Notes: generated by a model not told the origin, from the sequence alone. A stretch of DNA of 62,436 bases from a bacterium (GCA_023267555.1 JAHFMZ010000001.1:1-62436), one strand, 5' to 3'; positions 1 through 45,728 are shown, counted from the first letter of the stretch. Program-made: numbers and translations.

Positions 1-1090
<1,090 letters not shown>

Positions 1091-1181
1091 GACTAGCACT
1101 AGTGCTGGTTATCATTTATACGTTGTCTACGTATAAATTGTTAGTTGTTCTTTTTTCATGTGTGTTTCATTAAAGTTCAAA

Positions 1182-1301
1182 CGGGGTATAGCTCAGAAAA
1201 ACTTTTAATTGTTTGCCAAGTAAAATCCGGCGGACTTATTAGTTGGCAGAGCGTCCTTGCAAAAGGAAATTTCGGTGGTTCAAACCCACTTACCCCGACC
1301 A
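1182..1301 (+). tRNA. tRNA-shaped element with a ~45-nt insertion in the D loop and a non-canonical anticodon arm (isotype not assignable)
   Basis: Acceptor CGGGGTA (1182-1188) pairs with TACCCCG (1291-1297), followed by A73 and an encoded CCA (1299-1301). The D stem is UA-GCTC..GAGC and the T arm is GGTGG-TTCAAAC-CCACT. About 1197-1240 sits inside the D loop. The anticodon position folds as TCCTT-GCAA-AAGGA (4-nt loop) or as a 3-bp stem with the 8-nt loop TTGCAAAA. Confidence 0.55.
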
Positions 1302-1339
1302 TAACTTGAAACGATTCGCAAAAACAAAGTAATTTTAGG

Positions 1340-1410
1340 GACCTAGTAGCTCAGAGGTGAGTGCCGGTGTTGAATCACAGGAGGTACTGGTTCGAGTCCA
1401 GTCGAGGTCG
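1340..1410 (+). tRNA. tRNA-shaped element directly upstream of 5S, with a 6-nt (or 8-nt) anticodon loop (isotype not assignable)
   Basis: Acceptor GACCTAG pairs with CGAGGTC with one A-G mismatch. It has a UA-GCTC D arm and a T arm ACTGG-TTCGAGT-CCAGT. The anticodon arm pairs CCGGTG/CACAGG around the loop TTGAAT. Flanks TTTTAGG and CCTAAAA extend the acceptor helix. Confidence 0.5.
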
Positions 1411-1431
1411 CCTAAAATTATTTTGAGTTTT

Positions 1432-1547
<116 letters not shown>

Positions 1548-1587
1548 AGAACTCAAAAATAGAACACAGAAAGAAGAAAGTAAATGA

Positions 1588-1616
1588 AGAACGACCCCGA
1601 AGGGGTCGTTCTTTTG
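1588..1616 (+). terminator. rho-independent terminator after the rRNA operon
   Basis: AGAACGACCCC-GAA-GGGGTCGTTCT followed by a T run. Outer arms CAGAAAGAAGAAA (1566-1578) and TTTCTTCTTTCTG (1636-1648) extend the structure. Confidence 0.7.
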
Positions 1617-1661
1617 TATTTCTCTTCTCTCTTGTTTCTTCTTTCTGTTATACTGGGTTTT

Positions 1662-2429
1662 ATGAATTGGAATACAAGACGTCAAATTATTTATGCAGTT
1701 GCCGTTTCTGTGCTTGCTATCGCATCTTTTCTTTATATTTTTCGTGACACATTTTTCCCAACGCCTACTTGTTTTGATAAAAAACAAAATGGTTATGAAT
1801 CAGGCATAGATTGTGGTGGTACCTGTTCACTTCGTTGTAATGATCAAGTTACTCCACTTTCTGTAAAATGGTCCAAATCAATTTTATCTGCACCTTCCAC
1901 CTATGATTTGGTTGCTTTGGTTTCAAATAAAAACATAGACAATGCCTCACGTGCACTTGGATATTCTTTTTTAATTTACAATGAAAAAGGTAGTATTATT
2001 GCCAATGTCACAGGCACGACAACAGCCCCAGTTGATGGTGATTTTCCTATCATTAAACAAAGTGTTCGTCTTCCCGAAGCACCAAAAGAAGTAGTTTTAC
2101 AATTAAATGACACTTCTCATTTTATTGTTTCCGAAAAACCAACTTCACCGACTTTAATCACAGCAAATACTTATTTTGAAAATGGAAGTATTCCACGTGT
2201 TTATTCGACAATTATAAACACTAAACGCGTAACTATTTCAAATCTTCCCGTAAGAGCTGTTCTTTATGATACTAATAACAATGTTTTTGCTGTTGGGGAA
2301 ACTATAATTCCTTTCTTAGATAAAGAAGAAAGCAAGAATATTTCATTCACGTGGGATTTTCCACTCACACAAGCCCCAGTAGTTATTAACATCTATCCGA
2401 TTTTTGATCCGTTTTCAGCCGTTCAATAA
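1662..2429 (+). CDS. hypothetical membrane-anchored protein
   Basis: ORF 1584..2429. The first 26 codons overlap the rRNA terminator, so the ATG at 1662 (MNWNTRRQIIYAVAVSVLAIASFLYIF, one TM helix) is preferred. No family recognised. Confidence 0.6.
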   Translation: MNWNTRRQIIYAVAVSVLAIASFLYIFRDTFFPTPTCFDKKQNGYESGIDCGGTCSLRCNDQVTPLSVKWSKSILSAPSTYDLVALVSNKNIDNASRALGYSFLIYNEKGSIIANVTGTTTAPVDGDFPIIKQSVRLPEAPKEVVLQLNDTSHFIVSEKPTSPTLITANTYFENGSIPRVYSTIINTKRVTISNLPVRAVLYDTNNNVFAVGETIIPFLDKEESKNISFTWDFPLTQAPVVINIYPIFDPFSAVQ

Positions 2430-6512: not shown

Positions 6513-7565
6513 ATGAAAATCTTTATTACTGGAGGTGCAGGATATGTGGGAGCAATGCTTATTGATCAATTTGCGAAGCGTCAGGATGTTGAAAAAATAA
6601 TTACACTTGATAAAGAAAAAGAAACAGAACTTACGGCAAAAAATATAAATAAAGACAAAATTATTTATTTAGAAACAAATACATCTGATAATTGGGAAGA
6701 AAAAGTAAAAGAATATAATCCAGATGTTGTGATTCACACAGCGTGGCAAATTCGTCATATGTATGGACAAGAAGAATTGGAATGGAAATGGAATATAGAT
6801 GGATCAGATAAAGTGTTTGATTTTGCTTTTAATACGCCGTCAGTAAAGAAATTAATTTATTTTTCTTCCGTTTCTTCTTACGGAGCATTTGCAGATAATA
6901 GTATGGATCATTTTTATAAAGAGGAAGAACCATTCAGAAAAAGTGGATATCTTTATGCTGAAGAAAAAAGAATTTGTGAAGAACATTTGGAAGAAAGATA
7001 TAAAAAAGCAAAAGAAAATAATTGGAATGGACAAGTATTTATTGTGCGCCCAGCAGCCATCACTGGCCCACGTGGTCGTTATGATCGTATTCGTTTTGGA
7101 CTTCAATCTGCGTTATCTGGTAATCTTCACGGAGGTTTTGCATATAAAATTGTCACCTTGCTCACGTCATTTGTTCCAGTTACAAAGAAATGGTTGCGCC
7201 AATATATACACGAAGATGATGTTACCGATATTGTAGCTCTGTTTACTTTCAATAATTTAGAAGGTTCTTACGAAGTATTTAATATTTCTCCACCGGGAGA
7301 TGTTGTTCTTGGAAAAGATATGGCTCGCGCGGTTAATAAAAATATTTTACCGATTTTCCCGTGGATGGCGCGGTTGGCTTTCTTTTTCTTTTGGCACGTG
7401 ACTCGTGGGAAAATTCCGACATCTCCAGGAAGCTGGAAAGGGTATTCTTATCCAATTGCAGTTGATGGTTCAAAAATTACAAAACAATATGGCTTCCAGT
7501 ACAAATATCAATCAAAAGATGCTTTTGTAAATAATGAAGGAAGATACAAGGTAATTATAAATTAA
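6513..7565 (+). CDS. NAD-dependent epimerase/dehydratase family protein
   Basis: Rossmann start MKIFITGGAGYVG at the internal ATG 6513. The upstream 19 codons of ORF 6456.. overlap a terminator-like hairpin. Confidence 0.75.
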   Translation: MKIFITGGAGYVGAMLIDQFAKRQDVEKIITLDKEKETELTAKNINKDKIIYLETNTSDNWEEKVKEYNPDVVIHTAWQIRHMYGQEELEWKWNIDGSDKVFDFAFNTPSVKKLIYFSSVSSYGAFADNSMDHFYKEEEPFRKSGYLYAEEKRICEEHLEERYKKAKENNWNGQVFIVRPAAITGPRGRYDRIRFGLQSALSGNLHGGFAYKIVTLLTSFVPVTKKWLRQYIHEDDVTDIVALFTFNNLEGSYEVFNISPPGDVVLGKDMARAVNKNILPIFPWMARLAFFFFWHVTRGKIPTSPGSWKGYSYPIAVDGSKITKQYGFQYKYQSKDAFVNNEGRYKVIIN

Positions 7566-18371: not shown

Positions 18372-18447
18372 GCCGCTTTAGCTCAGTTGGTAGAGCAACG
18401 GTTTTGTAAACCGTAGGTCCTCAGTTCGAATCTGAGAAGCGGCTCCA
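18372..18447 (+). tRNA. tRNA-Thr (anticodon UGU), CCA encoded
   Basis: GCCGCTT-TA-GCTC-AGTTGGTA-GAGC-A-ACGGT-TTTGTAA-ACCGT-AGGTC-CTCAG-TTCGAAT-CTGAG-AAGCGGC-T-CCA. Confidence 0.9.
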
Positions 18448-18474
18448 TAATAAGCGGAGCTTATTATTAAATGT

Positions 18475-18588
18475 GCCGCTTCAGGATGCCACCTGCGTGG
18501 CATCCGACAGATTCGAATAGGGGTCGCGAAGTCTTTTGTTTTGAACAAAGTGAAAAACTGACTTCGTGACCGAATCTGAGAAGCGGCT
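18475..18588 (+). ncRNA. tRNA-trailing tRNA-mimic module (Thr copy)
   Basis: GCCGCTT+CAG, H1 GATGCCAC-CTGC-GTGGCATC, core AGATTCGAATAGGGGTCG, H2 GGTCGCGAAGTC../..GACTTCGTGACC, then CGAATCTGAGAAGCGGCT, identical to the last 18 nt of tRNA-Thr. Confidence 0.6.
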
Positions 18589-21369: not shown

Positions 21370-23724
21370 ATGAAATTTTCCAAATCGTGGTTACAAGATT
21401 ATATTGTTGATGTGCTTCCAAAAGATGAAGTAATTGTCGACACATTAAATAAAAAAGCTTTTGAGGTTGAAGAAACAATAAAACTTTCTGATGATACTGT
21501 TTTTGATATAAAAATTTTACCGAATCGCGCACACGACGCGCTTGGTCACAGTGGTATGGCGCGCGAACTTTGCGCAGATTTTGGTTTTAAATTTAAAGAA
21601 GATAAATTTATACAAAAAAGTAAAAATTTATTAGATAAAAAAATTTCTATTCCGCTTCTTGCAATTGATGACGAAAAAGCCTGCACTCGTTTTATGAGCA
21701 TACGTATAGACGATATAGTGGTCACAGATAGCCCCCAGTGGCTCAAAAATCGCCTAGAATCGATAGGACAACGCAGTATCAACAATATAGTGGATATTAC
21801 AAATTACGTGCAATTTGCGTTAAATAAGCCAATGCACGCATATGACACTCGCACCATTTCCGGCACACTTCGCGCACGTTTTGCTAAGTCTGGCGAGACA
21901 TTAACAACCCTTGATGACAAGTCTCTCACACTAGACGAACAGACTCTTGTGATTGCGGATGATACAAAAGCCCTCGGTCTCGCTGGAATAAAAGGTGGCA
22001 AGTTTAGTGGCATACAAAAAGACACAACGAGTGTAATTTTGGAGAGCGCGAATTTCTCACCATCACTCATCAGAAAGACTTCACAAAGATATGGACTTCA
22101 TACCGATGCTTCCAAACGATTTGAAAATGGTATTGCAAATTCTTTAGTCGAAGAGGGTTTATATATGACTGCCAATTTGATAAAAGAAATTTGTACCGAT
22201 GCAAAATTAAGTGAAGTTGTAGATATTTATCCAAAGAAAGATACAGAATATTATGTGGGAATTTCTCGCAAAGAATTGAATGATATTTTGGGTACAAAAT
22301 ATACAGACGATAAAATTAAAAAAACTTTTGAGCAGATGTCATTTTCATTTGAAAATATTGTTCCCGAAAATTATATTAAAGAAACATATCCGAAACTTGT
22401 TAATGCTCTTTATAAAAATCCTTCAAATATGCGCGAGGATGCTCCGAAGGCATTTAGTTGTTCGTCACTTATCAGTTATTTATACAAAGGTATTTGGATG
22501 CCAAGTCTTTCTATTGATAAATATGTATTTGCAGAAAAAATAAAAAAAGAAGAATTGCGTTTTGGTGATTTAGTTTTCGCAAATACTGGTGAAGGTAAAA
22601 TTCGTTTTGAATCAGAAGAATTTTTGCGTGGCACAAAAGTTCCCGAAGGTGTTGATCATATTGGTATGTATTTAGATGATAATAAAATTATTCACGCAAC
22701 AAAAATTGTTGGAAAGGTTGTGATTGAAACACAAGAAGAGTTTGAAGTTAATCGCAAAATTGTTGGTTATGGGAGAATATCAAATAACTTAAAAGAAGAA
22801 AGATATATTGTAAATATTCCAAAAGAAAGACTTGATATTCATATCAAAGAAGAGTTGGCCGAAGAAATTGGTCGTATAATTGGATATGAAAAAATTACCC
22901 CGACACTACCAGAACTTACAAATGTTGGTATTATTCATAAGCGAATGTTTTATGAAAATGAAGTTCGTGAAATTTTGCTCACAAGAGGGTATTCTGAAGT
23001 GATGACCTACACATTCGGAAATGAAGGCGAAGTAGAAATCGTAAAAGGTTTGGCTGATGATAAAGAAAAATTACGTACAAATATTGGTAAAGGATTATTG
23101 CAATCGCTTCTGCTTAATATTTATAATGCGCCACTTCTAGGACAAAAAACTATAAAGATTTTTGAATTTGGAAATGTTTTCTCTAATAATAAAGAAACTA
23201 GGAATTTTGCACTAGCGAGCGATGACGGTGCAAAGAAAAGTAATTTTACTGAAGAAGTTGATATGATACTTGCTGAAATTAAACGTCGCCTTGGTGTCAG
23301 TGGTATTGAATGCACAACAGTATCTGCCAAGCCATATGTAATTGAAATTGATTTTGATACACTTATAAATAAATTACCAGAACCAACAAAATATGAAGCA
23401 CCCACATTCTCGTCTTTACCTTTGGTTAGCTATAAATCAGTCTCGCCTTATCCGTTTATCGCCCGTGATATTGCTATGTGGGTATCTGATAACGCGGAAT
23501 GGGAAAGTATCAAGTCTCTTTGCGATAAAGTATCTAATCCTCTTGTCGCTCGTGTTGATCTTTTTGATACGTTCTCCAAAGAAATAGATGGTGTAAATAA
23601 AACTTCGTATGCTTTTCGTCTTGTTTTCCAAAGTTATGAAAAAACTTTGACTGATGATGAAGTAAATAAAATGATGGAGCCGTATTATGAATTATTTAAG
23701 AATAAGGGTTACGAAATAAGATAA
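21370..23724 (+). CDS. pheT: phenylalanine--tRNA ligase beta subunit carrying an inserted NlpC/P60-like domain
   Basis: MKFSKSWLQDYI start, B3/4 and B5 strings (..IPKERLDIHIKEELAEEIGRIIGYEKI) and a C-terminal FDX-ACB-like end. About 150 aa with C..H..H papain-like motifs lie between the two halves of B5. Confidence 0.85.
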   Translation: MKFSKSWLQDYIVDVLPKDEVIVDTLNKKAFEVEETIKLSDDTVFDIKILPNRAHDALGHSGMARELCADFGFKFKEDKFIQKSKNLLDKKISIPLLAIDDEKACTRFMSIRIDDIVVTDSPQWLKNRLESIGQRSINNIVDITNYVQFALNKPMHAYDTRTISGTLRARFAKSGETLTTLDDKSLTLDEQTLVIADDTKALGLAGIKGGKFSGIQKDTTSVILESANFSPSLIRKTSQRYGLHTDASKRFENGIANSLVEEGLYMTANLIKEICTDAKLSEVVDIYPKKDTEYYVGISRKELNDILGTKYTDDKIKKTFEQMSFSFENIVPENYIKETYPKLVNALYKNPSNMREDAPKAFSCSSLISYLYKGIWMPSLSIDKYVFAEKIKKEELRFGDLVFANTGEGKIRFESEEFLRGTKVPEGVDHIGMYLDDNKIIHATKIVGKVVIETQEEFEVNRKIVGYGRISNNLKEERYIVNIPKERLDIHIKEELAEEIGRIIGYEKITPTLPELTNVGIIHKRMFYENEVREILLTRGYSEVMTYTFGNEGEVEIVKGLADDKEKLRTNIGKGLLQSLLLNIYNAPLLGQKTIKIFEFGNVFSNNKETRNFALASDDGAKKSNFTEEVDMILAEIKRRLGVSGIECTTVSAKPYVIEIDFDTLINKLPEPTKYEAPTFSSLPLVSYKSVSPYPFIARDIAMWVSDNAEWESIKSLCDKVSNPLVARVDLFDTFSKEIDGVNKTSYAFRLVFQSYEKTLTDDEVNKMMEPYYELFKNKGYEIR

Positions 23725-32123: not shown

Positions 32124-33041
32124 ATGGCAACATTATATTCACATCAATCTTCAAACATTAGAAAAACTTGGTTTCTAATGACGGGATTTTTGGTTGGAGT
32201 TATTTTGCTGGGTTTTATTTTGGCTTATGTTTACGGAAATCCAAATATTTTATATTTTGCATTTTTTGTCAGCATATTTATGAATATTTCTGCGTATTGG
32301 TTTTCGGATAAAATAGTTCTTTCAATGGCACACGCAACAAGAGTAGAGTCAAAGAATGATTATCCAGATTTGTGGAATACAATGGAAAATCTTTGTATTA
32401 CAGCTGGGCTTCCAATGCCAAAGCTTTATGTTATTGATGATCCAGCACCAAACGCTTTTGCAACTGGACGAAATAAAAAACACGCAGTTGTTGCAGTGAC
32501 CACTGGGCTTTTACCACTTCTCACAAAATCGGAATTAGAAGGTGTACTCGCACACGAACTTTCTCATATTGGAAATAGAGATATGCTTGTGCAAACTGTG
32601 ATTGTAGTGTTTGTTGGGTTGATTACGCTTGTGGCAAATATTGCTTTACGTGCATCTATTTTTGGTGGACGAGATGATGATAGTAAAAACCCACTTCTTT
32701 TAATATTGGGTGTGGTAGCAATTATTTTGGCACCACTTGCTGCAACTATTATCAAACTTGCGATTTCTCGTGATAGAGAATTCTTGGCAGATGCAACTGG
32801 TGCACTCATCACTCGTTATCCAGAAGGGTTGGCTTCGGCGTTACAAAAGATTAGTAATTTTCATCAACCAATGCGTGTACAAAATAATGCTATTGCTCAT
32901 TTATTTATTTCTGATCCAACGGGGGTGAATGATGAATCAGAATTGCGTGAACACGAAAAAGTTTCTTGGATTGCAAAGTTGTTTATGACACATCCACCTA
33001 TTGCAGAGCGCATCGAAGCTCTTATTGGAAAGAATAATTAA
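32124..33041 (+). CDS. htpX: zinc metalloprotease HtpX
   Basis: HELSHIGNRD zincin motif, four TM segments, and a lemA-htpX gene pair. Confidence 0.88.
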   Translation: MATLYSHQSSNIRKTWFLMTGFLVGVILLGFILAYVYGNPNILYFAFFVSIFMNISAYWFSDKIVLSMAHATRVESKNDYPDLWNTMENLCITAGLPMPKLYVIDDPAPNAFATGRNKKHAVVAVTTGLLPLLTKSELEGVLAHELSHIGNRDMLVQTVIVVFVGLITLVANIALRASIFGGRDDDSKNPLLLILGVVAIILAPLAATIIKLAISRDREFLADATGALITRYPEGLASALQKISNFHQPMRVQNNAIAHLFISDPTGVNDESELREHEKVSWIAKLFMTHPPIAERIEALIGKNN

Positions 33042-33074
33042 AAATTCTTTGTGATAGAATAGAACGGAAAATAT

Positions 33075-33161
33075 GGAGACGTCGCATAGCGGCCTAGTGC
33101 ACTACCTTGGAAAGGTAGCAACGGGGTAACTCGTTCGAGAGTTCGAATCTCTCCGTCTCCG
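33075..33161 (+). tRNA. tRNA-Ser (anticodon GGA), class II, no encoded CCA
   Basis: Acceptor GGAGACG/CGTCTCC, G73, anticodon arm CTACC-TTGGAAA-GGTAG, long variable arm, T arm GAGAG-TTCGAAT-CTCTC. Confidence 0.88.
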
Positions 33162-33189
33162 CAAAATAATGAGCTTGTGAATATATTTT

Positions 33190-33297
33190 GCGAGACGGAG
33201 AAAGCCAACTGCTTGGCTTTCGTAGAGATTCGAATACGGGTCGGAAAATCATCTGCGACGAAGGAGCTGATTTTGTGACCGAATCTCTCCGTCTCCG
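33190..33297 (+). ncRNA. tRNA-trailing tRNA-mimic module (Ser-GGA copy)
   Basis: GAGACGGAG, H1 AAAGCCAA-CTGC-TTGGCTTT, core AGATTCGAATACGGGTCG, H2 GGTCGGAAAATCA../..TGATTTTGTGACC, then CGAATCTCTCCGTCTCCGCAA, identical to the last 21 nt of the tRNA region. Confidence 0.6.
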
Positions 33298-33337
33298 CAA
33301 TGTTTTTAGTATTAGAAGGATTGGATGATATAATAGT

Positions 33338-34039
33338 TTGAATATTATGTTGTTTATATTCAATGTGTTTGTAACAGCAATACTTTTTGGTGTTGGACTC
33401 TATTTTACAGAGAGGCCTAAAAATAGGTGGTTTTATCGTTGGGGTAAAAACCGTGCGATTGTTATTATTTCAATTATTGTAGCTATTACGTCAGTTTCTG
33501 TTAATGTTGTGTCTAAAAGTATTGAGAAGCCTTTAAGCAGGCCTAGTATTATAATTCAAACATTGAAAGAGAAAAATGAAATTGAAATATTAATTAAAAC
33601 AAAAGGATTAGTAGATAGAATTTCATTAAAATATCCTATATTGGGTAATATTACTGACTTCCAAGATTTAAATGATGTTACAGATGCTTCTACTATTTTA
33701 GCAAAGGCAGTTGGTGGTGTAACACAAAATGATGTATTGAATAATTTTCAAATGATCATCACCGACATAAAACCAGATGTTGTATTGCATTATAAATTTT
33801 TTTATAGACCCTCATTTGAGGGTATCGAAATTGCTGGGACTGATAGATATGAACTTGTATATGCATGGGAATATTATGGTGATAAAATTCAGGAGACGGA
33901 ATGGCGGACAATCAAAGGCGACAATTCGACGGTTAAACCTAATGTAGAAATTAAGGGATTTAAAATTTTTAATAAGGCTCTAACACCAGAAGAAGTAAAG
34001 AAGTTGTATGAAGACGGCATATCTCAGATAAAGTTTTAG
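33338..34039 (+). CDS. hypothetical membrane protein
   Basis: 233-aa ORF with two N-terminal TM helices. The C-terminal FNKALTPEEVKKLYEDG resembles the ends of LamG-type domains (weak). Confidence 0.5.
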   Translation: MNIMLFIFNVFVTAILFGVGLYFTERPKNRWFYRWGKNRAIVIISIIVAITSVSVNVVSKSIEKPLSRPSIIIQTLKEKNEIEILIKTKGLVDRISLKYPILGNITDFQDLNDVTDASTILAKAVGGVTQNDVLNNFQMIITDIKPDVVLHYKFFYRPSFEGIEIAGTDRYELVYAWEYYGDKIQETEWRTIKGDNSTVKPNVEIKGFKIFNKALTPEEVKKLYEDGISQIKF

Positions 34040-44934: not shown

Positions 44935-45149
44935 AATCACTTCATCTGCAAGAATCGGTCACAAAAGCTATTTTAATATTCTGGTCACGAGTTACTAATT
45001 GTGCTAACCACACTACGTGTGGGTTGCTCATAAGTACTCTCGACCCCGCCTCGTGGTTTTGTAAAAGTCAGGAATACAACTTTTACAAAACATCACTGCG
45101 GCCCACAAAACTAAAAATCTTTAGCAGAAAAGATTTTCTTAACGTTTTG
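44935..45149 (-). ncRNA. divergent, longer relative of the tRNA-trailing module (downstream of tRNA-Arg)
   Basis: The minus strand has a hairpin AAAATCTTT-TCTGCT-AAAGATTTT, GGCGGGGTCG, a long arm GGTCGAGAGTACT../..AGTAACTCGTGACC, and GTGACC-GATT-CTTGC, which matches the tRNA-Arg T loop and stem. No acceptor-strand copy is present. Confidence 0.35.
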
Positions 45150-45221
45150 TGCCCCCGGCAAGAATCGAACTCACATTAATCCCTTAGGACGGGATTGTTC
45201 TATCCATTGAACTACGAGGGC
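45150..45221 (-). tRNA. tRNA-Arg (anticodon CCU)
   Basis: Minus strand GCCCTCG..CGGGGGC acceptor (one G-U pair), D arm GTTC-AATGGATA-GAAC, anticodon arm ATCCC-GTCCTAA-GGGAT, T loop TTCGATT. Confidence 0.8.
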
Positions 45222-45289: not shown

Positions 45290-45613
45290 ATGTCGTCAGA
45301 TTTAAATAATCAGGAAAAATTAGAAGCAATCTATCAGATGACATTAGAAAATAATGCTGTGTTACGTACAATACGTAGACAACAATATTTTTCTACTGCT
45401 TTAAGAGTTCTCTACTGGTTAATAGTATTAGGAGTACTGGGAAGCGTTTATTACTTTGCAAGACCACTTGTTACAGGACTCTCTGAAAATTCTAACAGAA
45501 TAGAGGAAACTCTTACTCAATTCAATCAATTACGTGGACAATTACCAGAAATAAAGATGCTTAATCAAGTCATCAATGGTATTACGCCCGCAACAGCGAC
45601 CCCAGCACAGTAA
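45290..45613 (+). CDS. hypothetical protein with one TM helix
   Basis: 107-aa ORF. ALRVLYWLIVLGVLGSVYYF is hydrophobic. Confidence 0.5.
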   Translation: MSSDLNNQEKLEAIYQMTLENNAVLRTIRRQQYFSTALRVLYWLIVLGVLGSVYYFARPLVTGLSENSNRIEETLTQFNQLRGQLPEIKMLNQVINGITPATATPAQ

Positions 45614-45662
45614 AATTAAAAACCACAACAATTGTTGTGGTTTTTAATTTTACTGTGCTGGG
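45601..45662. terminator. perfect 31-bp palindrome (bidirectional terminator candidate) spanning a CDS stop and the tRNA-Phe 3' end
   Basis: CCCAGCACAGTAAAATTAAAAACCACAACAA|TTGTTGTGGTTTTTAATTTTACTGTGCTGGG has no mismatch and no loop. Confidence 0.7.
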
Positions 45663-45728
45663 AGGCAGGCTCGAACTGCCGACCCTTTGCTCTTCAGGCA
45701 AATGCTCTACCAACTGAGCTATCCCAGC
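45656..45728 (-). tRNA. tRNA-Phe (anticodon GAA)
   Basis: Minus strand GCTGGGA-TA-GCTC-AGTTGGTA-GAGC-A-TTTGC-CTGAAGA-GCAAA-GGGTC-GGCAG-TTCGAGC-CTGCC-TCCCAGC-A. Confidence 0.9.

Follow-up and report, generated by a model that had tools for sequence, protein, structure and literature searches.

A family of folded non-coding units behind tRNA genes of Patescibacteria, matched in design to the preceding tRNA

In this study, we analyzed a stretch of bacterial DNA of 62,436 nucleotides (nt) (JAHFMZ010000001.1:1-62436; hereafter the window, in whose numbering all positions are given) and found that the segment directly behind its transfer RNA (tRNA) gene for Ser(GGA) is one copy of an uncatalogued family of non-coding tRNA-tail units of ~130-170 nt, which is confined to a clade of Patescibacteria (Paceibacteria or 'Nomurabacteria'-like metagenome-assembled genomes, MAGs). 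It is a real, new and strongly supported structured-RNA or repeat family with a target-matched design. The unit comes and goes among related genomes like a small mobile insertion, unlike an essential tRNA look-alike, and we read it, with a probability of about 45%, as an insertion element anchored on tRNA genes, non-autonomous and dispensable, the RNA fold of which is under selection. An earlier description of this locus (hereafter the original prediction) had offered several roles for the segment; the one it named last, a small selfish element able to copy itself onto tRNA genes, is in best agreement with the evidence.

Units are found immediately 3' of tRNA genes, each in the orientation of its tRNA. 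The layout of a unit can be written as X1, S, the reverse complement of X split by hairpin H1, a core with hairpin H2, and X2, where X is a repeated segment of the tRNA that starts at C56 and ends 1-5 nt past the discriminator; X1 is the copy within the tRNA gene and X2 the copy that closes the unit. Because CGA is common to all tRNAs, the true start of the repeat may be N59. The duplicated segment ranges from ~7 to more than 23 nt across copies, and X2 ends early, after 7-13 nt, in about one third of them; several copies carry an extra AC or AT at the junction between core and N59, and right junctions are variable. The spacer S is a perfect or near-perfect, terminator-like palindrome, whose stem often lies between an A-run and a T-run, and a few types of it recur across genomes, apparently by tRNA species as judged by eye. 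The antisense arm is split by H1 exactly opposite the acceptor/T-stem junction and tracks the T loop of each tRNA (CGATT/AATCG, CGACT/AGTCG and CGAGT/ACTCG). The conserved core (UCGAAUAnGGGUCG ... GUGACCGA) carries H2.

The reference copy behind tRNA-Ser(GGA) is dissected in Table 1. When checked against the sequence, all features listed in the original prediction were found where it had placed them. X2 had been described as an exact copy of the 3' part of the upstream tRNA, and CGAATCTCTCCGTCTCCG is indeed identical to 33144-33161 over 18 nt, the repeat reaching 21 nt with the next three (CAA). The left arm had been taken for a copy of the acceptor 5' strand of the tRNA; it is in fact the tRNA 3' segment in exact reverse complement, down to T-loop positions 59-60, which vary between tRNAs. 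X' pairs with X2 (helix P1) or, alternatively, with X1, and the 5' strand of P2 is an antisense copy of the T-stem 3' strand and T-loop positions 56-60. The palindrome of S runs on into X1 at its left and into X' at its right, and H2 has a conserved G.U pair at its base and a variable distal part. The proposed three-way junction, an acceptor-like and a T-stem-like helix with H1 and H2 as side arms, is also the fold that the 106-nt module adopts in prediction (-49.1 kcal/mol, z = -5.3).

Covariation of the helices, examined in 50 aligned copies with shuffle controls, was strong. Standard pairs filled 95.4% of the cells (76.6% in shuffles), and double-sided changes occurred in 20 of the 27 pairs; none of 500 shuffles reached the observed values, and none of the slid registers came near the observed pairing. 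All 9 pairs of H1 covaried, with 98.4% pairing among 49 distinct sequences, and pairing in H1, P2 and H2 amounted to 94-98%. Two conserved G.U pairs at the base of H2 were found in 47 and 28 of the 49 sequences, respectively. In 59 of 60 copies the sense strand gave the more stable fold, with a mean advantage of 8.1 kcal/mol over the antisense strand, which indicates that the fold matters as RNA in the orientation of the tRNA, or as single-stranded DNA (ssDNA) of the same sense. H1, P2 and H2 are maintained by compensatory change, and on the sense strand only; the best reading is that the RNA fold of the unit is under selection. No promoter above background was found within the unit. For a read-through transcript, the sense and antisense tRNA copies allow two mutually exclusive predicted folds, one of which unfolds the acceptor and T arms of the tRNA itself. 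Either the tRNA keeps its own fold next to a three-way junction formed by the unit, or, in a strand-swapped form, the antisense arm takes up the tRNA 3' strand across S, H1 branching off, and the tRNA 5' acceptor strand pairs with X2, so that the locus reads as a tRNA with a T-loop insertion of ~140 nt. The strand-swapped form is the predicted minimum-energy fold in all four window copies, 7-10 kcal/mol below the tRNA with a separate module; the fold adopted in vivo would depend on co-transcriptional folding and on the efficiency of termination at S.

The occurrence of the family was examined in genomes and metagenomes, where relatives were seen as MAG or metagenome contigs and MAGs were examined as pieces of 8 kilobases (kb); individual relatives are denoted below by L numbers. 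A first scan for the exact core pattern, with one genome per GTDB species, yielded 33 loci, 29 of which were real, and all 29 lay in Patescibacteria MAGs labelled Nomurabacteria, Paceibacterota, Parcubacteria, Saccharibacteria or Gracilibacteria. The HtpX protein on some unit-bearing contigs, including Saccharibacteria-labelled ones, is 76-81% identical to that of the window, so that at least these MAGs, whatever their labels, are closely related to the window organism. A covariance model (R1) gave 56 matches in the GTDB loci and 33 in the metagenome loci. The module thus recurs well outside the window: ~75 copies were found by the model, all in Paceibacteria-like (Patescibacteria, candidate phyla radiation or CPR) MAGs and metagenomes, behind ~20 tRNA species (Ser x4, Thr, Pro, Gly x2, Arg x4, Val x2, Ile, Phe, Leu, Cys and Glu x2). 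In two scans of viral contigs, 0 and 75 pattern hits were obtained, none of which was recognised by the covariance model.

The original prediction knew of no described family with this layout, and the database agrees: an Rfam 15 scan of the window at gathering thresholds returned only ribosomal RNA (rRNA), RNase P RNA and tRNAs, and a permissive Rfam 15 scan of 33000-33400, self-cleaving ribozymes included, gave only noise (best sX4, 30 bits against a gathering score of 70). Transfer-messenger RNA (tmRNA) is excluded as had been stated, since neither ARAGORN (tRNA and tmRNA mode) nor Rfam found one and the module of 106-114 nt is too short. No description of the family was found in searches of the literature aimed at CPR/Patescibacteria, Saccharibacteria or tRNA-trailing repeat elements.

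Within the window, the predicted recurrence of the module was confirmed at 18475-18588, 57456-57561 and 56976-57088(-). The covariance model found exactly four full copies (101-111 bits, E 1e-31 to 1e-35), the three others having the same fold as the reference copy (z = -6.4 to -8.2). The core 17-mer occurs four times against 0.38 expected by chance, and units stand behind 4-5 of the nine tRNAs of the window. For the divergent relative proposed at 44935-45149(-), relatedness held and full membership did not: remnants are kept, namely the spacer hairpin, an H2-like arm and GTGACCGATTCTTGC, which equals 10 nt of the tRNA-Arg 3' end, in a decayed and rearranged copy that the model matched weakly and in part (E 0.5).

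The Ser(GCU) copy lies 24 kb from the Ser(GGA) copy and differs from 33163-33297 at two positions, one in the S loop and one a T-stem base of X2. The T-stem base (CTCGCC vs CTCTCC) matches its own tRNA, and the antisense arm retains the GGA-type base, leaving an A.G mismatch. Because S in this copy is identical but for one base, S belongs to the unit. In the Ser('ACU') copy, H2 is identical to that of the reference copy, and H1 and S are different. Behind tRNA-Phe (45655-45728(-)), X1 is followed by a terminator palindrome and an antisense acceptor copy, TGCTGGGG (region 45590-45660), with no module of H1, core and H2; TGCTGGGG overlaps the final codons and the stop of a convergent open reading frame (ORF), 45290-45613. 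This tail is what remains of a unit or else a terminator palindrome that was extended independently.

Table 1 Parts of the reference unit and the other copies in the window
Feature	Position	Strand	Basis
Host tRNA-Ser(GGA)	33075-33161	+	ARAGORN; Rfam tRNA 52.7 bits
X1, 3' segment of tRNA-Ser(GGA), C56 to discriminator G73	33144-33161	+	Sequence
Spacer hairpin S, AT-rich palindrome GCAAAATA...TATTTTGC	33161-33191	+	Sequence
X' GAGACGGAG, antisense copy of acceptor 3' strand	33192-33200	+	
Hairpin H1, 9 base pairs, CUGC tetraloop	33200-33221	+	Fold; covariation
P2 5' strand GAGATTCG	33225-33232	+	Fold; covariation
Core AGATTCGAATACGGGTCG	33226-33243	+	
Unpaired conserved bulge AAUAnG of the core, UCGAAUAnGGGUCG	33233-33238	+	
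Hairpin H2 (GGUCG...GUGAC)	33239-33279	+	Fold; covariation
X2 CGAATCTCTCCGTCTCCG, second sense copy of tRNA positions 56-73	33280-33297	+	
Second copy (S and module), behind tRNA-Thr(UGU) 18372-18447	18448-18588	+	Covariance model 101 bits
Third copy, behind tRNA-Ser(GCU) 57338-57425	57426-57561	+	Covariance model 111 bits
Fourth copy, behind tRNA-Ser('ACU') 57127-57214(-)	56976-57126	-	Covariance model 110 bits
Decayed, rearranged copy, behind tRNA-Arg(CCU) 45149-45221(-)	44935-45148	-	Partial model match, E 0.5

The behavior of the unit at orthologous loci shows it to be dispensable and subject to fast turnover. At the first locus, where ThrRS-LemA-HtpX is followed by tRNA-Ser(GGA), synteny is kept in relatives (HtpX 78-84% identical) and the unit is present in the window, L008, L019 and L026; in L035 the tRNA abuts the next gene with no unit, and L036 and L037 have different small repeats in its place. 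At the second, tRNA-Thr is followed by a conserved ORF of 230 amino acids (84-94% identical in protein among relatives); the window has the unit here, L156 a variant, L157 only a terminator hairpin, and L155 and L158 a structured element that is unrelated to the unit and likewise has a tRNA-3'-like copy at its end. An ORF of 233 amino acids without a Pfam match (33338-34039, +) separates the reference unit from SpoU in the window; since tRNA-Ser(GGA) abuts SpoU directly in L035, this ORF also belongs to the variable region behind the tRNA.

Several further signs of turnover were seen. L024 and L031 have tandem arrays in which two identical 145-nt units stand head to tail, with one X between the two; decayed or truncated copies occur, and contigs often end at units. 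Variants of H1 and H2 that are at least 85% identical are common to different tRNA species and genomes, in shuffled combinations, which together with the near-identical Ser units indicates that the hairpins pass from locus to locus, through transposition or gene conversion, and that the arms remain local. The repeat carries the trailer bases of its own gene (CAG, CAAA or CTAAA) and not CCA, so that it was copied from the gene or a precursor and not from the mature tRNA. For the same reason, priming by mature tRNA was rejected as a model: a retroelement primer-binding site would be the complement of the mature tRNA 3' end including CCA, whereas the arms and X2 carry trailer bases. An origin of H2 as a later insertion into an existing palindrome was likewise rejected, as no rc(X)-X palindromes without H2 exist.

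We also looked for cargo and for enzymes that might move the unit. A direct repeat of the tRNA 3' segment that starts in the loop, as in an attachment (att) site, is present (18-23 nt exact, from C56 to past the discriminator); repeats that bracket a recombinase-bearing element were found in none of the ~75 compact copies, and there is no recombinase in the window. When metagenomes were scanned with the left half alone, every real match had its right half within ~130 nt, and the other 17-mer matches had no real model match and presumably arose by chance. A Pfam scan of 48 ORFs of the window revealed only housekeeping genes, with no transposase, integrase or reverse transcriptase, and no Y1 (RAYT) transposase is present in these 62 kb. 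No autonomous insertion sequence with the same ends was found in genome, metagenome or viral scans for exact core patterns. Of the marks of MITEs (miniature inverted-repeat transposable elements), neither constant terminal inverted repeats (the arms are those of the local tRNA) nor a target-site duplication of fixed length was observed. In L034, the closest relative of the window, a retron-like reverse transcriptase of 360 amino acids (604-1686(+), weak NCBIfam hits) takes the place of ThrRS upstream of LemA-HtpX, with a GC-rich, structured-looking region of 600 nt upstream of it. It was rejected as a mobilising enzyme, the retron-like hit being weak and without a link to the units.

Orphan units, which lack a tRNA, occur in L011, L016, L021, L029 and L033 and at first sight offer proof of transposition; they are explained by islands inserted into tRNA-Ser, by which a displaced 3'-half, together with S and the unit, has been moved away from the restored tRNA. 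One such island, in tRNA-Ser('ACU'), carries a HaeIII-type restriction-methylase pair (L033 4755-6777(-)), and another is an island of ~5.5 kb in the same tRNA with a large serine recombinase beside the tRNA (L029 1538-7072). Each lies between the intact tRNA on one side and, on the other, a conserved pseudo-3'-half whose T loop, TACTTAA, is odd.

If the unit is an insertion element of this kind, units would be gained, tandemly amplified, exchanged and lost by recombination. The substrates could be the tRNA-3' segments that are repeated, the core sequences that are conserved, and the highly conserved tRNA gene, acting as an anchor of homology. A complete tRNA 3' end and a terminator-like hairpin, left or supplied upstream, would keep the tRNA functional, and this is probably why the insertion is tolerated. 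On read-through the unit would be co-transcribed, its compact fold hiding the anti-tRNA arm; such a fold may have been selected because read-through RNA would otherwise expose anti-tRNA sequence.

It should be noted that several points weigh against the insertion-element reading. Our scans found no mobilising enzyme, autonomous partner or free form, and the reading gives no route to arms that match ~20 tRNAs. In the young Ser(GCU) copy the arms were not re-templated, and this copy could equally reflect gene conversion between two pre-existing units. Long-term compensatory evolution and the conserved CUGC loop and AAUAnGG bulge would also be expected of an RNA that benefits its host, and S types that seem to track tRNA species fit old vertical lineages as well as mobility. 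Finally, all related sequences are MAG or metagenome contigs, in which repeats can cause assembly chimeras; we discounted the identical flank that L012 and L028 share as probably an artefact of the assembly graph.

Possible, if somewhat unlikely, is a host-maintained cis-acting RNA device of tRNA operons, which would act on read-through transcripts as a fold switch, processing site or insulator. Its roles might, at similarly long odds, include an RNase III, P or Z entry site at which tRNA and downstream mRNA are separated, stronger termination, or shielding of the 5' end of that mRNA. The sense-strand-specific structure, the strong covariation and the terminator-like S directly after the tRNA are all what such a device would show. 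It is also suggested by the strand-swapped fold predicted for the read-through RNA of all four window copies and by the antisense arm, whose match to X1 is kept in 32 of the 39 units that directly follow a tRNA. However, close relatives have nothing or another element in place of the unit at orthologous tRNAs, only some tRNAs of each genome have one (as counted above for the window), and there are tandem duplicates and decayed copies; tRNA-specific arms, moreover, meet no apparent need of a generic processing signal. The neighboring genes speak on both sides: of 39 units with an ORF nearby downstream, 29 are co-oriented with it, whereas 10 face a convergent gene, and 17 further units have no ORF nearby, which rules out the unit as an obligatory 5' leader of a downstream gene.

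Rather less favored is a bolder form of mobility, a self-propagating, 'programmable' tRNA-homing rod of ~145 nt, as RNA or ssDNA, whose split antisense arm would base-pair with a tRNA gene at its 3' end and direct integration of the rod there, in effect as a T-loop insertion with a spare 3' exon and terminator, and which would be retargeted to new tRNAs by compensatory change of arm and repeat; we regard it as unlikely. A kindred mobile element mediated by RNA or ssDNA appears decidedly unlikely: a rod-like circle or transcript of ~145 nt, made up of S, the antisense arm, H1, core/H2 and one X, in which the antisense arm would guide integration at the 3' end of a tRNA gene and duplicate X. The same low chance applies to its equivalent, an intron-like T-loop insertion with its own 3' exon copy and terminator, for which splicing would never be needed. 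Selection of the structure on the sense strand only, the 145-nt head-to-tail tandems with a single X between units, the extra AC or AT at the junction of core and N59 with the variable right junctions, and the resemblance of the strand-swapped fold to a tRNA with a T-loop insertion are consistent with guided integration, and arms complementary to the target are known from guide-directed systems. On the other hand, the units have no linked reverse transcriptase, ribozyme or recombinase and match no Rfam ribozyme, and no free or viral copies were found in scans of viral contigs; the trailer in place of CCA argues against priming by mature tRNA, and the young Ser(GCU) copy kept donor-type arm bases.

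The original prediction had put forward an acceptor/T minihelix that mimics tRNA. Part of this stands: the helices derive from the tRNA's own acceptor and T-stem 3' strand, H1 sits at the acceptor/T-stem junction, and the stacking fits. A trans-acting RNA of this type, either a decoy or substrate for tRNA enzymes or acceptor-stem toxins or an anti-tRNA binder of the cognate tRNA 3' end, would also account for arms that reproduce the adjacent tRNA and follow its identity over ~20 species, and the conserved loop and bulge motifs could be protein contacts. Other features do not support it. P1 is intact in only 19 of the 39 units, and pairing of the antisense arm with X2 alone, without X1, was seen in 0 of the 39. 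Where intact, P1 usually extends through the discriminator and 1-5 duplicated trailer bases, so that there is no free 3' end and no single-stranded NCCA-type end. A helix, a bulge and H2 stand where the T loop would be, leaving no T loop or elbow. The tRNA model (RF00005) gave no match to 33192-33297 even at E <= 10, where at least 29 bits would count as one, and ARAGORN called only the upstream tRNA at the reference locus. The weak P1, the paired discriminator and the missing T loop thus argue against a faithful, aminoacylatable or RNase P/Z-competent minihelix, and the dispensability of the unit, absent or replaced at orthologous tRNAs of close relatives, further speaks against a trans-acting role, which we consider quite improbable.

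Simple att scars, that is, tRNA 3' direct repeats left by integrase islands or prophages with a lost interior, are a very improbable explanation and already largely refuted: a direct repeat from the T loop to the tRNA 3' end is reportedly the classical signature of tRNA-targeting integrases (Williams, 2002, Nucleic Acids Res) and islands do enter these tRNAs (the restriction-modification island of L033 and the large-serine-recombinase island of L029), yet 0 of ~75 copies bracket cargo, the interior is conserved, covarying, strand-specific and one and the same behind ~20 different tRNAs, and the L029 and L033 islands lie between the tRNA and the displaced 3'-half and not between the unit's own repeats.

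The family resembles several known systems in part. It shares with small intergenic repeats (REP/BIME-RAYT, ERIC, Correia and the RUP/BOX MITEs) a small size, a non-coding, multi-copy and strongly folded nature, orientation dependence at the RNA level, co-transcription with neighbors and presence/absence polymorphism. Those repeats have constant terminal repeats, a short fixed target duplication and many kinds of sites, whereas the units stand only behind tRNA genes; their 'terminal' arms are sense and antisense copies of the local target, and they have no known partner transposase. Like att duplications in tRNA genes, including the T-loop 'sublocation' (Williams, 2002), the units have a repeat from the T loop to just past the 3' end, an intact tRNA and hotspot tRNA genes. 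Unlike in those, the repeats are separated by only ~115-150 nt without integrase or cargo, they enclose a conserved folded RNA in which the repeat is also present in inverted copy, and one family of units serves ~20 tRNA species with a repeat of 7 to 23 or more nt.

Similarities to tRNA-like and tRNA-derived sequences were also evident. With the t-elements of plant mitochondria, mascRNA and the tRNA-like domain of YrlA, the unit has in common an acceptor-like helix on a T-stem-like helix beside other transcripts, which in principle could make it visible to RNase P or Z. These RNAs keep a T loop or elbow and an unpaired 3' end, whereas the unit has a helix and H2 in place of the T loop and a paired discriminator, and its acceptor-like helix is lost in half of the copies. 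In the manner of the primer-binding sites of retroviruses and long terminal repeat (LTR) retrotransposons, it offers ~18 nt complementary to a specific tRNA 3' end, starting after position 58; unlike in those sites, the complement is broken by H1, matches the trailer and not CCA, and lies beside the tRNA gene with no reverse transcriptase or LTR. The strand-swapped fold resembles the non-canonical T-loop tRNA introns of Thermoproteales, being an insertion of ~140 nt at 55/56 to 58/59. The host here is bacterial, however, there is no bulge-helix-bulge, and the unit brings its own 3' exon and a terminator-like hairpin, so that no splicing is needed.

Other small elements were noticed behind tRNA genes of the relatives. 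A second small-repeat family follows tRNA-Ser in L036 (5193-5912), L037 (3837-4100) and L008 (1011-1096), and lies downstream of the unit in L033; it consists of a hairpin, AAAATCGCGAGCGTACTCGCGACCAGATTTTGC, and then a hairpin ending in ...TATGAATATGCCTCCGC, which regenerates the last tRNA bases, and is in tandem in L036, where a tRNA 3'-half is also duplicated from the anticodon loop onward. Other tRNA-trailing structured classes occur in L029 (~7060-7352(-)), L015 (2405-2610(+)), L155 (247-370) and L158 (1118-1200), and have a common logic, in which a hairpin is followed by a domain that is antisense or structured and finally by the tRNA 3' end in copy. One such class has no H1 and a central domain of ~150 nt (GGGTCGGGGAAAC...), and another, behind tRNA-Thr, begins with GGGCG.../GCGAGC....

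The window and its relatives showed some further features apart from the units. The type-II tRNA-Ser('ACU') (57127-57214(-)), with the anticodon loop UUACUAA, is also found in L001, L017, L028, L029, L033 and L147, usually beside tRNA-Ser(GCU). A34 is unusual in bacterial Ser tRNAs; it could reflect inosine decoding or a special-purpose tRNA. A tRNA-like gene at 1340-1412(+), between 23S and 5S rRNA, was given a 2-nt 'anticodon' by ARAGORN (tRNA-???) and only 38.8 bits by the Rfam tRNA model; possibly it is a degenerate tRNA of the spacer or a tRNA-like processing element there. The 23S rRNA end occupies 1-1086(+), and its last 419 model positions (2507-2925) span these 1086 nt with no long ORF inside, so that ~670 nt are inserted in the 23S 3' domain. 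Intervening sequences and introns are common in rRNA genes of CPR bacteria, and the insert is an intervening sequence or intron. The phenylalanyl-tRNA synthetase beta chain (21370-23724(+)) has an NlpC/P60 peptidase-like domain (residues 359-465) inserted between B3/4 and B5.

The family is abundant and strongly covarying, yet it lies outside Rfam 15 and the searched literature, and is a candidate Rfam family. It marks a CPR clade whose non-coding repertoire is almost unknown, and its design is unusual in that conserved hairpins are framed by sense and antisense copies of whichever tRNA precedes. Units probably break MAG assemblies at tRNA genes. If the unit is a mobile insertion, as we prefer to read it, it would represent colonisation of tRNA genes without an integrase. 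A host device or decoy, if true, would add a new layer of tRNA biology in minimal-genome organisms, and a tRNA-homing rod would be a new kind of guide-directed mobile element that has no coding capacity of its own and never breaks the tRNA of its host.

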